Made by a program: the position numbers and the translations under genes. Shown here piece by piece: positions 14,466 to 20,000 of a stretch of 20,000 nt of DNA. How positions within the stretch are numbered: the stretch's first letter is position 1; the number at the start of each line of letters is the position of its first letter. The notes under the pieces were generated by a model. That model saw only the letters and a program-made list of their open reading frames with translations. It had not been told where the DNA came from and did no database searches. This DNA is from an uncultured virus (IMG/VR IMGVR_UViG_3300001544_000071) (taxonomy: Duplodnaviria; Heunggongvirae; Uroviricota; Caudoviricetes), in IMG/VR virus record IMGVR_UViG_3300001544_000071; one strand, given 5' to 3'.

Positions 14466-14494
14466 GGGCGTTTCGAGTTGGTTTTGCATGATTG

Positions 14495-14534
14495 GCACAC
14501 CCAAAACGGGCATACGCATACAGGGGGGAGTCAT
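14495..14534 (+). repeat. Inverted repeat A, outer copy (40 bp, perfect; partner 15193-15232)
   Basis: GCACACCCAAAACGGGCATACGCATACAGGGGGGAGTCAT is the exact reverse complement of 15193-15232. Confidence 0.95.
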
Positions 14535-14876
14535 CATCATTTGATGGGGGGACACGGACATACTATACGTGTTCTTAGTACCGCTGCCGTAGAATGGGGT
14601 AGTGGCCTAGTTGCTATTATTGGTTCGGGAGCAGCAGCGCACTCTCATGGTATAGCAACGGCTATAACTCCTAATCTTGCTCGTTCTGTTTTTGCCACCG
14701 TATCCGGCAGTGTAGTCGTTGGAGGGACAGAGTTAGGCGGAGGGTCTACAAATACTTCTGCCGCGGATGCTACTGTAGGCAGTGCAACAGCAACAAACCA
14801 AAACACAGGTTCCGGCACAGCCCATAATAACCTTCAACCCTACATAACTTGTTTTATGTGGCGCAGGGTTAGCTAG
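14496..14876 (+). other. Silent alternative fibre-tip cassette A (126 aa, no own N-terminus or RBS)
   Basis: Begins at IR-A with HTQNGHTHTGGSH and ends GSGTAHNNLQPYITCFMWRRVS, paralogous to the C-terminus of 14869-15912. The middle is divergent. Confidence 0.85.
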
Positions 14877-15912
14877 TTCGTTTCCACATGTAGCAGGTAA
14901 TAAAGGGCTGTAAATTATTATGTGCATTTCCGCTGCCGTTAGCCTGTATAGCTGGCGTTACCGTAGTCAATGCTCCTACGTTCGCCGCTCCGACTGCTGC
15001 ATCAGATGAGCCGGTAGCCAATACAAAAGAGTTTGCGTTTGAAAAAGTAGGTCCTTGTCCGTTAAACAAAGATACAGACATCCTAATAAAACCAGTACTC
15101 GCACTTTGGTCAGGCCCAACCTGTACTCTGCGCCCTACACCCAACCCTTCCATAGCAATTACTGTATGGGAGTGTCCCCCACCGGTGTGTCCATGACTCC
15201 CCCCTGTATGCGTATGCCCGTTTTGGGTGTGCGTATGACTCGGCATCTGCGCTACGGTTAAGGTGTGTGTTGCTGCACCGCCGAGTTGTTCTACGTTCTG
15301 AAACTGTGCGTTACCTTCATCAACACCAACTGGCACACGCCCATTGCCCCATCTTGCCCATGTGGTACCAGTAAACAAAGTACCCGGATTGACAGGGTTG
15401 ACAGTCATATAAATAGACCCAACAGGATAAATAGTCGCAAAGTCCGCTCCCGGACCGCGTATATTACCGCCCACCTCAACTTCAAAAGGACTAAGCGAAG
15501 TAATTTCCACAAGCGCACCAATGGCTACGGCATTTACGTTACCAATCTGAATAGGAATACCGGCGGCCTGAATAATAATATCGCCAACTCTTGCTGTTGC
15601 AGGCGGAGCGGTCATACCGACTGTTGTACGGAATATCTTCGTACCGGGTAAACCGGAAAGCTCAATAACAAAAGTAACAACTACGTTTGTAACATTATTT
15701 ATACCCACAATTTGACCAATACGGCCTTGGGTTTTACTAAAAACAAGCTGCCCTTCTTGTGGATTATGCCCTGTTAAAGGCACAAGAACAACAGAAGAAT
15801 TGCCGGAAGTATTTATTTCACTAAGAGTATGCCAAAAACCGGGTAAACCAGCCGGACCGGGACCGCCGGGGTCGCCAAGAACCCGACCTAAATCTACTAC
15901 GTTTGCTGCCAT
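14869..15912 (-). CDS. Tail fibre/baseplate tip protein (T4 gp10 C-terminal/collar-like domain with HxH needle), currently carrying tip B
   Basis: AGGAGA SD at 15919-15924. Short G-x-x collagen-like start, then 'IYPVGSIYM…WARWGNGRVPVGVD…GGAATHTLTVAQMPSHTH', four HxH motifs and 'AHNNLQPFITCYMWKRT'. Confidence 0.85.
   Translation of the reverse strand: MAANVVDLGRVLGDPGGPGPAGLPGFWHTLSEINTSGNSSVVLVPLTGHNPQEGQLVFSKTQGRIGQIVGINNVTNVVVTFVIELSGLPGTKIFRTTVGMTAPPATARVGDIIIQAAGIPIQIGNVNAVAIGALVEITSLSPFEVEVGGNIRGPGADFATIYPVGSIYMTVNPVNPGTLFTGTTWARWGNGRVPVGVDEGNAQFQNVEQLGGAATHTLTVAQMPSHTHTQNGHTHTGGSHGHTGGGHSHTVIAMEGLGVGRRVQVGPDQSASTGFIRMSVSLFNGQGPTFSNANSFVLATGSSDAAVGAANVGALTTVTPAIQANGSGNAHNNLQPFITCYMWKRTS
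15193..15277 (-). repeat. Inner copies of IR-A (15193-15232) and IR-B (15228-15277), overlapping by 5 bp inside the fibre gene
   Basis: Direct base-by-base comparison with 14495-14534 and 15974-16023. Confidence 0.95.
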
Positions 15913-15973
15913 GTTATATCTCCTATAGTACCATTTTTGACGATAAAAGTTGTTTTGTCAAGTTGATTTATTT

Positions 15974-16023
15974 TGCAGCAACACACACCTTAACCGTAGC
16001 GCAGATGCCGAGTCATACGCACA
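15974..16023 (+). repeat. Inverted repeat B, outer copy (50 bp, perfect; partner 15228-15277)
   Basis: TGCAGCAACACACACCTTAACCGTAGCGCAGATGCCGAGTCATACGCACA is the exact reverse complement of 15228-15277. Confidence 0.95.
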
Positions 16024-16484
16024 ATGGACCTTCACATTCACACGGTATGCAATCCCACACACATACGGGGCCTAGTCATAGTCACAGTATGAGTACACAA
16101 CAAATAAGCACAAGTGGAGATTTTACAGTTTTGGGTGCAACAAGCGCAACTCTTTTTAGTAATACTGTTGCATTTTCTATAGCAAATACAAATATAACAT
16201 TTCATGCTGCCGGCACAACCATACCGGGAAATCGAACTATAATAGGTTCGGTGAGTTTTTCTGGCGGTGCTGGTAATGTTTGGCGGCCAATAACAGATGG
16301 TACTACATCTTTTTGGAACAGTGGAGCTAATACAGGCGCATCAGGCACACAAAACACAGGCGGCCCAAGCAATAACACAACTACAAGTGCAGGTAATACC
16401 GCTACTACAGCAGCAGGAAGCGGTACTGCTCATAATAATCTCCAACCCTACATAACATGTTTTATGTGGAGACGTACTGCTTAG
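15975..16484 (+). other. Silent alternative fibre-tip cassette C (169 aa, no own N-terminus or RBS)
   Basis: Begins at IR-B with AATHTLTVAQMPSHTH, has four HxH motifs, and ends GSGTAHNNLQPYITCFMWRRTA. The middle is divergent and longer. Confidence 0.85.
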
Positions 16485-16490
16485 GGCCGC

Positions 16491-19013
16491 TTACCCAAAA
16501 GCCTCCGGGTTCACCGCCGCATACCCATCCGTCAATTCCACCACCGCCGGTTCATCTGCAACATGGTCTAGGTGCCGTTGTATCGTAGCCTTCCGTATAT
16601 CCAGCAAAGCTCTTTGCGTAACGCAGAGAAAATAGCAGAGCATACGCACACAGTCCGTATCGTGTATCGGAGAACTCGGCCCAATACCTTTGGGTATCTG
16701 ATTATTCTTATCCCTCTGCGCCAATGACAAAGCCTCCGCCGTATCCTTTGCAGCTTGGGTACATATAAGCCTTGAAGTGTACAACAGCTTGTTAGTAACA
16801 AAAGCACTATCTTCCACATTAGGATTTTTCCCTCTTGTTACCCACCATATCCCATGCTTATGTAATTCTCTTGTAAATTGCGTAATCTGGTCTTTCGCCG
16901 TAGTATCCGGTATCCATAATATCTTATTCCTCGGAAAATCAACCCGCAGCACTTTCGGAGCTTGCCGTATATCAGGAAACTCATACCGCTTCACAATATA
17001 AATAATATTCCCGCGTAATATAGCGGCGCATCCCCTATGGTATCCTTTGTTAAAATCCTGCGTCCAATATATCGTTTCGTTCTGCCCTACTTCCATGTCC
17101 AAAGGTATATTAACAAAGTTCCTGTCCCAATCAAAATCCCCGAACACCCTGCCCTGCGCAAGAGCCAAAAACATACCTTCAAGATAAACAAGCCTTTCCT
17201 GCGGTGTGTAAATCTGGTATAAACTCTCAACATACTCCGGGTCTAAATACCAATTATCCGCAGTCCTTCCCCGGATAAGCGTATAAGCCACGCCTGCTTT
17301 CTTGAAATTAGTTATTACACGATATAATCCTTTTTGGCCTTGCGATGTTGAGTTGTGTACAATCTTAAACCCGCAGTACCCTTTAACACAAAACTCCCCT
17401 TCATCTCCGTCAGGCATGTCTACTTCTAAATCGTACACCGGAACACTCCGGGCATTTTTTCGTAAACCATTTCGCATCGCGTCTAAAAATCTTGCCGCAA
17501 GAGCATACCGTTTTTTGGAATTGGGAGGTTTCTGCTCGCTGAACGCCAAACCGTTTAGATTTATCTCTACAACTCTGGCTACATAATCGAGCAGGCTTTG
17601 TAGTTCCCCAACGCTCTCCGCACACGCCGCACACACAGGCGTAACATCCAAATCCTTCTCTAATCCTATCTCTCTCTGCGTAATATTTGGCAAGCTCATT
17701 TCTATACTTTTTCTGGCATTTACTACATCTAATCCTTTTAATACACGCTGTATTAAACGAAATACCGCAATCAACACAGTCCGTAGCCCAAGTCTCTTTC
17801 TGCCAAACATTTTTATACTCTCTATGCCTAATTGCTCTATTACGTTCCGTATGTTGTTTTCTTCTTTCATTCTGCTGGCATATACAACATCTTTTACTTT
17901 GTACACCTTTTGTACTAAACTTTTGTCCGCACACAACACACACCCGTTCCCGCCAATGTGTTGTCCTATGCAGTGCTTGATGTTCTCCTGCCGACAAACA
18001 CTCAAGATTTTCAAGACTGTTATCAATTGTGTTAAAATCTTTATGGTGTATTTCCATTCCATCCGGGACAGTCCCGTTAGCTTTCTCCCAAACCGCACGA
18101 TGTAACGAAATTGTTTTGCCGTTCGTAGAACTTGTTCTGTAATACCCCTGCGGTTTTCCTTTACACCAATGCCAGTAGAACTTAATTCCATCAAACACGA
18201 TAGCAGGCATTTTTTTACCTCTTGCATTTCTAGCCATTTTTGTATCCTCCTCTTTGAGTATACAGTAAATAGCGAACTCTTGTCAAGACTTTGTGCGCAC
18301 TTCCAGACACCATCATCAAATACCCGATGTTCGGGGGTCATTTGAACACCAGCATACCAGAACACCTGTCGGTCATTTGTCTGCCCTGCTTTTTTAACTT
18401 CCCTAAATCCTTTTCGTGTAAGTACAAACTCTCCGGCACGAATATCTTTTATTTTTTTAACTCCTTGTTTTGTCAATACCTTTGTATTACCTTCTAAACA
18501 CGCAAAAGCAAGAAACGGTTTACGAAAATCCGGTATAACCTGTCTTGCACGTTCATTCACCGCTTTTACCGCATTAAAAGTAACGTCATCTCCTGCTATA
18601 TGCCCAAGGTCGTCAATCTCATCACATAACGCCGCGCAGCAGTCGAAACCCATAATCTCCTGCGGAGCAGAAAGAGACACTAATATTGTCGTAACATTCC
18701 CAACCGTAAGCCGGTTATTTTTCTTATCGTGCGTAAACTTAGTCCCGCTGTTATCCAAATCCTCTTTGATATACGCTAAGGTTGTTTTCTCAAGATGCCC
18801 TAACGTAACACCGCCAAGCAACAAACGTGGATTATGTCCTTCGCGTGATTTCTTACCTTGAAGTCTTTGGTTCGTGCTTGCCCACTGCGTTGCTAAAGAA
18901 CTCGTTTTACCGCTGCCATATCCGGCTACAAGAAAATGAAACCTATGCGCCGGAAATAAATAAGGAGCCTGTATGAAAGCTCCCTGATGCGGCAATAAAA
19001 GTTTTCTCCTCAT
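16491..19013 (-). CDS. terL: Terminase large subunit precursor with intein (840 aa; ~457 aa after splicing)
   Basis: Q-motif 'LLPHQ', Walker A 'AGYGSGKT', Walker B 'ALCDEID', coupling motif 'FA|STSQG' interrupted by the intein, and nuclease acidic residues 'TQDFN', 'IPD' and 'IHDTD'. Confidence 0.9.
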   Translation of the reverse strand: MRRKLLLPHQGAFIQAPYLFPAHRFHFLVAGYGSGKTSSLATQWASTNQRLQGKKSREGHNPRLLLGGVTLGHLEKTTLAYIKEDLDNSGTKFTHDKKNNRLTVGNVTTILVSLSAPQEIMGFDCCAALCDEIDDLGHIAGDDVTFNAVKAVNERARQVIPDFRKPFLAFACLEGNTKVLTKQGVKKIKDIRAGEFVLTRKGFREVKKAGQTNDRQVFWYAGVQMTPEHRVFDDGVWKCAQSLDKSSLFTVYSKRRIQKWLEMQEVKKCLLSCLMELSSTGIGVKENRRGITEQVLRTAKQFRYIVRFGRKLTGLSRMEWKYTIKILTQLITVLKILSVCRQENIKHCIGQHIGGNGCVLCADKSLVQKVYKVKDVVYASRMKEENNIRNVIEQLGIESIKMFGRKRLGLRTVLIAVFRLIQRVLKGLDVVNARKSIEMSLPNITQREIGLEKDLDVTPVCAACAESVGELQSLLDYVARVVEINLNGLAFSEQKPPNSKKRYALAARFLDAMRNGLRKNARSVPVYDLEVDMPDGDEGEFCVKGYCGFKIVHNSTSQGQKGLYRVITNFKKAGVAYTLIRGRTADNWYLDPEYVESLYQIYTPQERLVYLEGMFLALAQGRVFGDFDWDRNFVNIPLDMEVGQNETIYWTQDFNKGYHRGCAAILRGNIIYIVKRYEFPDIRQAPKVLRVDFPRNKILWIPDTTAKDQITQFTRELHKHGIWWVTRGKNPNVEDSAFVTNKLLYTSRLICTQAAKDTAEALSLAQRDKNNQIPKGIGPSSPIHDTDCVRMLCYFLCVTQRALLDIRKATIQRHLDHVADEPAVVELTDGYAAVNPEAFG
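17352..18500 (-). mobile_element. Intein (383 aa, residues 172-554 of TerL)
   Basis: Block A 'CLEGNTKVLT', block B 'MTPEHRVF', block F 'VYDLEV' and block G 'IVHN', followed by Ser+1. Confidence 0.92.
17410..18210 (-). CDS. HNH homing endonuclease with multiple CxxC zinc ribbons, nested out of frame within the intein (266 aa)
   Basis: 'SLHRAVWE…EIHHKDFNTIDNSLENLECLSAGEHQALH' is a clear HNH motif, followed by about 8 Cys pairs. ATG at 18210 with GAGGT at 18217-18221. Confidence 0.85.
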   Translation of the reverse strand: MPAIVFDGIKFYWHWCKGKPQGYYRTSSTNGKTISLHRAVWEKANGTVPDGMEIHHKDFNTIDNSLENLECLSAGEHQALHRTTHWRERVCVVCGQKFSTKGVQSKRCCICQQNERRKQHTERNRAIRHREYKNVWQKETWATDCVDCGISFNTACIKRIRCSKCQKKYRNELAKYYAERDRIREGFGCYACVCGVCGERWGTTKPARLCSQSCRDKSKRFGVQRAETSQFQKTVCSCGKIFRRDAKWFTKKCPECSGVRFRSRHA

Positions 19014-19854: not shown

Positions 19855-20000
19855 CTTTTTTATTCCCTTGTCCTTAAACATCTCCTTTTGTTCCCTTGTC
19901 TTTTTATTCCTCTTGTCCCCCCTGTCTTTTTATTCCCTTGTCCCCCCTGTCTTTTTATTCCCTTGTCCCCCTGTCTTTTTATTCCCTTGTCCCCCTGTCT
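19855..20000. repeat. Pyrimidine-rich tandem repeat, unit ~CTTTTTATTCCCTTGTCCCCCTGT (24-26 bp)
   Basis: Units at 19900-19925, 19926-19950, 19951-19974 and 19975-19998. Partial copies start near 19855, and the array continues off the window edge. Confidence 0.9.

Follow-up and report, generated by a model that had tools for sequence, protein, structure and literature searches.

How can an intein be mobile when its own reading frame stays open over 383 codons but shows no nuclease motif in its central part? This question is raised by the gene encoding the large terminase (terL) in a stretch of 20,000 nucleotides from an uncultured virus of the Caudoviricetes (IMG/VR record IMGVR_UViG_3300001544_000071), which as a whole is referred to as the window. 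An earlier note on this DNA had placed an intein of 383 codons at 17352-18500 and had proposed that the corresponding HNH homing endonuclease is made as a separate protein, overprinted on the intein in the -1 frame, with the intein frame having to stay free of stops. We recovered the intein at the same coordinates, and consider it probable (roughly 85%) that terL contains a class-1 intein and that the homing nuclease belonging to it is encoded by a separate, overprinted gene in the -1 frame, while the intein frame is merely kept stop-free. The proposal finds its support in two open frames and their homologies, in frame-specific conservation and stop avoidance, in the relative L090, in the presence or absence of the element at one precise site among relatives, where one allele has the site empty, and in the recurrence of the layout in other phages. 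The features on which the argument turns are the following:

16491-19013, minus strand: terL (large terminase) open reading frame (ORF), 840 codons including the intein, taken from the ORF list
18501-19013, minus strand: N-extein, 171 residues, ending in ...RKPFLAFA, delimited from the sequence and from the alignment to Tetrasphaera phage TJE1 and to L090
17352-18500, minus strand: predicted class-1 intein, 383 codons, with C1, T55-x-x-H58 (block B), VYDLEV (block F) and H382-N383, followed by S+1
18240-18500, minus strand: putative N-terminal splicing region with blocks A and B, spanning residues 1 to about 87 and situated upstream of where the HNH gene starts; hidden Markov model (HMM) of five seed inteins; predicted score in the local distance difference test (pLDDT) 78-98
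17460-18239, minus strand: stop-free linker of the intein frame, about 260 codons, without family match or amino-acid conservation
17352-17459, minus strand: putative C-terminal splicing region with blocks F and G; HMM E 2e-15; pLDDT 90-97
17410-18237, minus strand: putative HNH homing-endonuclease gene, 275 codons and a stop, at offset +2 (= -1) to terL; alternative in-frame start at 18210

The host ORF is free of stops in the terL frame from 19013 to 16494 and is thus uninterrupted. Its identity follows from BLASTP, by which the C-extein matched the annotated TerL of TJE1 with 37% identity (E 1e-49) and the N-extein matched the same protein with 30% identity (E 1e-17), and is further supported by an intein-less relative of 456 residues that is encoded upstream of a portal-like gene in the IMG/VR locus L089. 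Within the N-extein, VAGYGSGKT and LCDEIDD are what we take to be the Walker A-like and Walker B-like motifs. The presence of portal, protease, tail-fibre and amidase genes (PHROGs) identified the window as phage DNA, a context that adds to the identification of terL; a blastn search with the terL region against 50,697 phage records yielded no match.

The intein junctions in TerL lie at FLAFA|C172...HN554|S555, so that the protein reads ...RKPFLAFA|CLEGNTKVLT...GFKIVHN|STSQGQKG..., and the insertion point falls in the ATPase domain, just before the STSQG motif. The residues expected to carry out splicing were compared with those of related inteins: the nucleophile C172 of TerL (C1 of the intein) does not vary among 43 aligned inteins and was found in all 50 of the inteins that were characterised; in block B (T55-P-E-H58) H58 is invariant and T55 at least 90% conserved among the 43; and N383 is invariant as well. 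The last two residues of the 50 inteins were HN in 32 cases, SN in 15 and others in 3, and the +1 residue was C in 43 and S in 7. In the AlphaFold2 model of the intein, the residues 1-100 and 350-383 have pLDDT values of 80-98 (90-97 for the latter), and the middle (residues 110-345) has values of 36-65. A Foldseek search with the confident parts retrieved the gp41-1 intein (6qaz) as the best match (E 1.9e-4, template modelling (TM) score 0.56 on the target), followed by the DnaB and RecA mini-inteins. The element thus bears the marks of a class-1 intein, viz. the nucleophile, block B, a C-terminal Asn followed by Ser at +1, a predicted Hint fold and a precise insertion, with splicing itself being predicted; the central linker is not conserved and, judged by the model, probably disordered.

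A profile search of both frames, which the earlier note had suggested as a check, gave different matches for the two. Within Pfam the intein frame matched Hint-type families only, and these at its N-terminus only (e.g. Vint, E 7e-5, with 23.1 bits against a cut-off of 27; all of these matches fall short of the curated cut-offs), and no nuclease family of Pfam was matched in this frame, in agreement with the claim that it lacks a nuclease motif. The nested ORF matched PF13392 (HNH_3) with E 9.4e-15 and 54.4 bits against a cut-off of 24.8, as well as 11 HNH or endonuclease families of the PHROGs (best E 1.7e-13). The encoded protein consists of an N-terminal beta region, an HNH core (H64, H65, D67, N73, N77, H86 and H90) and repeated Cys4 zinc-ribbon-like units. 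The residues H64, H65, D67, N73, N77 and H86 and three Cys columns are invariant across 43 aligned nuclease sequences; the His and Asn residues among them are taken to be the catalytic ones of the beta-beta-alpha-metal motif. The AlphaFold2 model of the HNH frame, based on the 43-row alignment, reached a mean pLDDT of 78.6, with averages of 81-98 for the ten-residue blocks over residues 11-90, and showed two zinc-ribbon-like hairpins (residues 150-163 and 199-212). The gene starts at intein codon 88 or 97 and stops 19 codons before the end of the intein, and the first ~16 codons of the C-terminal splicing region (17413-17459) overlap its 3' end. The protein of 266 residues described previously was thus recovered as an HNH/zinc-ribbon ORF with its own Shine-Dalgarno (SD) sequence and an end in block F; its start at 18210 is the second in-frame ATG, and the ATG at 18237 opens a longer ORF of 275 codons.

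If the two frames were open independently, stops should be found in the intein frame, and their distribution argues otherwise. Across the HNH ORF the terL frame contains 0 stops and the third frame 38. Recoding of the HNH protein with the codon usage of the other genes in the window (5680 codons, 20,000 trials) introduced 4.1 stops into the terL frame on average and left it without stops in 0.67% of the cases (P(0) = 0.0067). Shuffling of the synonymous codons of the HNH ORF itself gave 0 stops in 1.2% of 5000 shuffles, a weaker control because the codon pool has itself been shaped by the constraint. Stops in the terL frame are possible only where an HNH codon ends in TA or TG and the next codon begins with a purine: codons for Leu, Ile and Val ended in TA or TG in 0 of 12 cases before a purine-initial codon and in 14 of 21 cases before a pyrimidine-initial one. 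The same frame contains 3-11 stops in 22 non-nested homologues (mean 7.1, i.e. 3.8 per 100 codons), a density that predicts about 10 stops for the window ORF, and the host frame of 62 nested loci contains 0.016 stops on average. The double open frame reflects, on these counts, selection and not chance.

What selection acts upon differs between the frames. In a comparison of 51 nested HNH genes over 190 well-occupied columns, the HNH codon positions 1/2/3 differed by 0.124/0.102/0.321 in the nine pairs with at least 70% protein identity and by 0.379/0.324/0.608 in the 37 pairs with 50-70% identity. Variation is greatest at HNH position 3, which corresponds to host-frame position 2, and the peptide of the host frame is therefore not conserved. 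The comparison of the window with L090 gave the same picture: in the HNH frame 97 of 265 residues are identical (36.6%) in a gap-free alignment with a summed BLOSUM62 score of 484, whereas the same nucleotides yield 57 of 264 identical residues (21.6%, sum 69) in the intein frame and 49 of 264 (18.6%, sum 62) in the non-coding third frame. The latter contains 35 and 21 stops, and both coding frames are stop-free over the overlap in the window as well as in L090. The linker is therewith best described as held open but not conserved in sequence, the intein frame being roughly at the level of the non-coding third frame. The dual coding over some 800 nucleotides that had been claimed before holds in so far as both frames are open; the double protein constraint itself is limited to the ~16 codons where the tail of the HNH gene overlaps block F, and the remainder is one coding frame over a stop-free spacer.

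Two relatives were retrieved from IMG/VR with the C-extein as query. L090 has a terL of 840 codons in which both the intein site and the offset of the HNH ORF agree with those of the window, and its exteins are 58% and 57% identical to those of the window; it was asked before whether the HNH frame is disrupted in a close homologue, and in L090 it is intact and stop-free. L089 is the closer relative (62% identity over the C-extein) and has a terL of 456 codons without intein and with the exact junction RKPFLCFG|STSQGQKG. In TJE1 the site used in the window is empty and an intein of the same family is found near the C-terminus of TerL, where the window has none.

The layout recurs widely. An alignment-based scan of IMG/VR, from which the best 80 of 519 relatives were kept, located the HNH match wholly inside a long ORF on the same strand in 58 of the 80 loci, which is not a prevalence because the loci are the top matches to an alignment dominated by nested forms (5 of the 6 rows of the query). 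Two of the 80 loci (L036 and L047) are copies of the GenBank phages CL2 and phiCDHM19. In the nested loci the frame of the host ORF always lies one base after the HNH frame and never two. Both ends of the intein were matched by the HMMs in 47 of the 58 nested loci; the HMMs, built from five seeds, missed at least one end in the other 11, in 10 of which C...N|C/S boundaries were recognised by eye and which represent inteins with a shorter N region. L080 is a fragment of 215 codons without terL. Of the host ORFs, 36 of 57 matched Terminase_3/3C or Terminase_6N/6C in Pfam, and no other host family was seen. In 43 of 50 loci the start chosen for the HNH gene falls within intein codons 80-105, and in 51 of 51 its stop is reached 0-25 codons ahead of the end of the intein. 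With respect to the insertion site the window is unusual: 48 of the 50 characterised inteins are inserted in the nuclease domain, at a distance of 18-81 residues from the host ORF's end, and the only ones far upstream are those of the window (286 residues from the end) and of L013 (215). L090 shares the site of the window, and the intein of L021, recognised by eye, is also located in the N-terminal half of its host ORF. With 383 codons the intein of the window is the longest of the 50 (median 318).

Among GenBank phages, a tblastn search with the HNH protein against the 50,697 phage records matched 118 of them. We inspected four of these in which the match fell under a terL annotation, viz. 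the terL genes of Clostridium phage phiCDHM19, Rhodobacteraceae phage LS06-2018-MD07, Acinetobacter phage Highwayman and Tetrasphaera phage TJE1, and all four (4/4) contain the HNH ORF at offset +2 in an intein with a stop-free and unrecognisable in-frame middle; a fifth match annotated as terL, in Enterobacter phage 01_vB_Eclo_IJM, belongs to a record in fragments and was excluded. None of the four records annotates the HNH ORF, just as the earlier note had expected of standard annotation. Clostridium phage phiCD119 (L003, AY855346.1) has the same layout in a broken record: its terL region (201-2595, a record of 2005) is divided into several ORFs, and the close relative phiCDHM19 has a single terL of 799 codons. 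The break is likely due to frameshifts in the older record, in which the intein's C-half can still be recognised, as can the HNH ORF of the -1 frame. Matches to the HNH protein of TJE1 were also found by tblastn in the Vibrio phages 1.245.O and 1.238.A/B and in Brochothrix phage BL3, where they coincide with a 'hedgehog/hint domain protein | terminase large subunit' annotation or with a pair of adjoining genes, and they probably represent additional instances of the nested or split form. In L032 (509-3835) and L044 (1-4305), the host ORF of an intein with a -1 HNH gene also matches LAGLIDADG_3 in frame at a more upstream position (258-322 of 1109 residues and 208-270 of 1435, respectively), which may represent a second, conventional intein in the same ORF; neither host ORF had a Pfam terminase match at E <= 1e-5.

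From these data the following course of events can be proposed. Ribosomes on terL would produce the N-extein, intein and C-extein as a single chain, after which the flanking Hint halves would fold together and splice themselves out to yield a TerL of 457 residues (171 + 286). The HNH protein would be made separately by internal initiation at the ATG at 18237 or 18210, behind its own SD sequence, on a transcript that could be the terL mRNA or one from an internal promoter. In a mixed infection the nuclease would nick or cut intein-less terL alleles such as that of L089, and repair would copy the intein together with the HNH gene into the cut allele. As any stop in the linker would destroy the function of an essential gene, selection purges the intein frame of stops and at the same time preserves the protein encoded in the HNH frame. 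Splicing, separate translation and the activity and target of the nuclease are predictions from the sequence. Three features bear on how the nuclease may be expressed:

18246-18252, minus strand: SD-like GAGGAGG, 8 nucleotides upstream of the ATG at 18237, read from the sequence
18257-18286, minus strand: sigma-70-like promoter match TTGACA-18 nt-TATACT (11/12), ending 20 nucleotides upstream of the ATG at 18237, from a consensus scan
18210-18216, minus strand: A_AAA_AAA heptamer in the terL phase, candidate site for a -1 frameshift into the HNH frame

SD-like sequences are present at both ATG codons; the HNH start is likely either 18237 or 18210, and internal initiation is the simplest reading of how the protein would arise. 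The site at 18257-18286 is a possible internal promoter; at the matching place L090 has TTGACA-18 nt-TATCGT, and the TTGACA also encodes conserved intein residues. Next to the manner in which the 80 loci were selected, several observations weigh against our interpretation. With respect to expression, an SD match of at least 4 nucleotides upstream of the chosen start was found by a crude test in 28 of 51 related loci, the number of promoter-like sites in the region (5) does not exceed that of shuffled sequences (mean 5.7), the transcript start predicted for the promoter-like site would lie within the SD sequence itself, and no RNA run is listed that contains the window stretch, which is present in two DNA runs of one study. 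With respect to identity, the exteins of the window match no terminase family in Pfam or PHROGs, the HNH protein found no match by phmmer among the PDB sequences at E up to 0.01, and the best PDB match of its model in Foldseek was a weak one (E 5.7e-3, probability 0.98, TM scores 0.21/0.31). That match is I-HmuI (1u3e) of a Bacillus phage, like the nuclease of the window an HNH-class homing endonuclease; the C-terminal DNA-binding parts differ, those of the window being zinc-ribbon units. I-HmuI is encoded in a group I intron.

The same observations can be accommodated by other explanations. The nuclease might be produced as a fusion of N-extein, intein N-half and HNH protein by -1 frameshifting at the A_AAA_AAA heptamer, which indeed has the terL phase and lies at the HNH frame's 5' end. 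Of 51 related loci just 10 have a slippery heptamer in phase close to where the HNH gene starts, and this at varying positions; the A-run simply encodes Lys-Lys in both frames, and the window has its own ATG codons with SD-like sequences at 18237 and 18210. We judged the heptamer to be incidental and rejected this mode of production, given the lack of conservation, as very unlikely. The layout could also have been created during assembly, by compensating indel errors that moved an in-frame HNH domain out of frame, since the window apparently stems from a metagenome assembly and the stretch is contained in only those two DNA runs, from which it may itself derive. Such errors would still require the intein frame to be open by chance over ~265 codons; moreover L090 has the same two-frame layout with a gap-free HNH alignment, and the layout is present in the 58 IMG/VR loci and in four independently sequenced cultured phages, by which this explanation is already contradicted and has a negligible probability.

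A further question is whether the nuclease drives the mobility of the intein at all. It could be an independent lodger, either a free-standing, self-spreading homing gene for which the intein is just a harmless place to land or a packaging nuclease that is associated with the terminase. Non-nested homologues are found directly downstream of a terminase-family ORF, with an upstream Pfam Terminase match in 10 of the 19 that were examined (e.g. L010, L018, L022, L025, L030, L037, L045, L060 and L084), and HNH proteins adjoining terminase genes have reportedly been linked to packaging (PMC3592412; PMC4422536). In L030 and L045 the upstream ORF is the N-part of the terminase in a split-intein form and not an intact terL. 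The uniform position of the HNH gene within the intein, with its start and stop in the narrow ranges given above, speaks against a lodger. The relative frame is always the same, as would be expected if intein and nuclease were mobile as one unit. Hosts of the Terminase_3 and of the Terminase_6 type both contain this composite, at several sites, and the family is that of I-HmuI-type homing enzymes, to which the predicted fold shows a weak match. An independent nuclease is improbable in our view, and this reading overlaps with ours, in that a cut close to the insertion point would set both parts in motion. Alternatively, the intein may have been fixed and be spliced while the nuclease is a relic that is no longer active or needed; its activity is a prediction, and the homing-cycle model of a 2025 preprint predicts decay after fixation. 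The ORF nevertheless shows no break over its 275 codons, the catalytic and Cys columns are all conserved, and most of the variation falls on codon position 3. The relatives include an allele with an empty site, and targets for homing are therefore still present, which makes a relic quite improbable. Separate overprinting of a homing nuclease on the intein remains the explanation that we prefer.

The nuclease family is encountered in other arrangements as well. In Lactobacillus phage CL2 and its IMG/VR relatives L029, L030, L033 and L036 (the CL2 copy), and likewise in L045, an upstream ORF comprises terL and the N-half of an intein and then ends in a stop, the HNH ORF comes next, and a small ORF that overlaps the HNH 3' end encodes ...VYNMEV...IVHN|CMDA.RY, i.e. 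the C-half of the intein and a short C-extein, which is the layout known as a 'fractured gene'. In the record of CL2 itself (L002, KR905067.1, 455-2771) the annotated 'large subunit terminase' ends in the intein N-half and is followed by the HNH gene, and the small ORF, with the intein C-half and about 27 C-extein residues (...FIVHN|CMDATRY...), is unannotated; terL of this type appears to be split by a natural split intein. An intact Terminase_3/3C ORF followed by the HNH gene was found in six loci (L018, L022, L025, L037, L060 and L084). The ORF directly downstream of the free-standing homologue matched ADPrib_exo_Tox of Pfam in L025 (2324-2959, E 7e-24) and is a DUF4417 protein in L018, L037, L060 and L084. 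It is conceivable, and we put it forward tentatively as something rather doubtful, that the three states of this one HNH family (overprinted, between the halves of a split intein, and free-standing after terL) trace a path of intein invasion in which a single stop in the linker subsequently turns a contiguous into a split intein; the window and L090 would then be members that were retargeted from the nuclease-domain site to the ATPase domain, and the nuclease of the window would perhaps be its own transcription unit, driven from a promoter inside the intein.

Whether the architecture had been described was left to a literature check, and the novelty implied before did not survive it: comparable layouts have been reported for the terL of Brucellaphage (2015), in a 2025 preprint on actinophages and in a preprint on dnaX. 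A close parallel is found in Gosselin et al. (2025, preprint), who describe frame-3 genes for endonuclease VII-like proteins in actinophage terL inteins, as well as antisense LAGLIDADG and VSR-like nucleases with terL among the hosts, and who propose that inteins have been invaded by free-standing homing genes. Their type D and the window share a contiguous intein, often in terL, with a nuclease gene that is located between the splicing blocks and read in frame 3 (+2) of the same strand, and an in-frame middle without recognisable structure. The nucleases differ, being endonuclease VII-like (IPR004211) in the preprint and HNH_3 with C-terminal zinc ribbons in the window: Pfam found HNH_3 and no Endonuclease_7 in the window nuclease at E up to 1. 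The survey of the preprint is stated to be confined to PhagesDB, and among the tblastn matches listed for the HNH proteins of the window and TJE1 there was no actinophage of the PhagesDB type other than TJE1. For Brucellaphage, a publication of 2015 (PMC4422536, Virol J) mentions an HNH gene that lies out of frame within the terL intein, in a passage that gives no analysis of selection or spread. In the RefSeq record of Brucella phage Tb (NC_019446) gp07 is annotated as 'intein present' and gp08 as 'putative HNH endonuclease'. As in the window, the HNH gene overlaps the middle of the intein-containing terL on the same strand and out of frame; its offset is +1 and not +2, it belongs to a different HNH family with a C-terminal core, and its similarity to the window protein is confined to a 32-residue core match (E 0.002).

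Beyond phage terminases, an out-of-frame LAGLIDADG gene in a cyanobacterial dnaX intein has been described by Phillips, DeSimone and Gogarten (bioRxiv 10.64898/2026.09.14.751524), who credit the first proposal to Gorbalenya (1998). The dnaX intein resembles that of the window in its overlapping-frame nuclease within a contiguous intein, with purifying selection on the nuclease frame, a relaxed intein frame and coexisting intein-free alleles; it differs in that it involves a LAGLIDADG enzyme and a cellular host gene instead of an HNH enzyme and a phage terL. In fractured genes, as outlined by Dassa et al. (2009, PMC2677866), a free-standing homing endonuclease gene is located between the halves of a split intein. 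The nuclease is thus likewise an ORF of its own between N and C splicing halves, a state that is exactly that of the HNH relatives in the CL2-type loci and L045, but the halves are separate polypeptides there, whereas the intein frame of the window is uninterrupted and contiguous (i.e. predicted to splice in cis). The ShiLan domain (Arsenault et al. 2025, PMC11855218) is reported as an out-of-frame HNH domain hidden in an insertion in a phage methylase. The insertion is, like that of the window, stop-free in the host frame, but has no splicing domain and is thought to be retained in the protein, whereas the insertion in the window has complete intein blocks. We found no paper on the HNH_3 plus zinc-ribbon family, on its breadth or on insertion at the ATPase site in a search that had most subscription journals and preprint supplements outside its reach. 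The layout is therewith not new in kind; particular to the window are the HNH_3 plus zinc-ribbon nuclease and the unusual site in the ATPase domain.

Elsewhere in the window two further structures were recorded. A tandem repeat with a period of 24 nucleotides (4.6 copies, 94% matches) is located upstream of the terminase region at 19888-20000, where it runs off the end of the window. The tail-fibre gene (14869-15912, minus strand) sits between two plus-strand ORFs (14478-14876 and 15903-16484) that encode alternative fibre C-termini ending in ...AHNNLQPYITCFMWRR. Perfect inverted repeats connect these flanking ORFs to the tail-fibre gene, one of 50 nucleotides (15228-15277 / 15974-16023) and one of 35 nucleotides (14500-14534 / 15193-15227), the arms of which abut within the gene. 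The region 14478-16484 has the appearance of a host-range switch that is invertible, in the manner of a shufflon, and comprises three cassettes; PHROGs did not reveal a recombinase among the ORFs of the window.

The value of the locus lies in the breadth of the family and in the new site, and not in a new principle. Gene callers report only terL, as in the four GenBank phages, and a common mobile nuclease is therefore undercounted. The locus also illustrates a regime that is rarely modelled by annotation tools or by tools that compare non-synonymous and synonymous substitution rates (dN/dS), in which one frame is conserved as protein and the other is kept just stop-free, and it lends support to the idea that inteins acquire their nucleases through invasion of splicing domains. 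If the tentative scenario of a promoter inside the intein were true, the expression of the nuclease would be uncoupled from the late expression of terL, and the three states of the HNH family make the route from a contiguous to a split intein testable in cultured phages, such as TJE1 and CL2.

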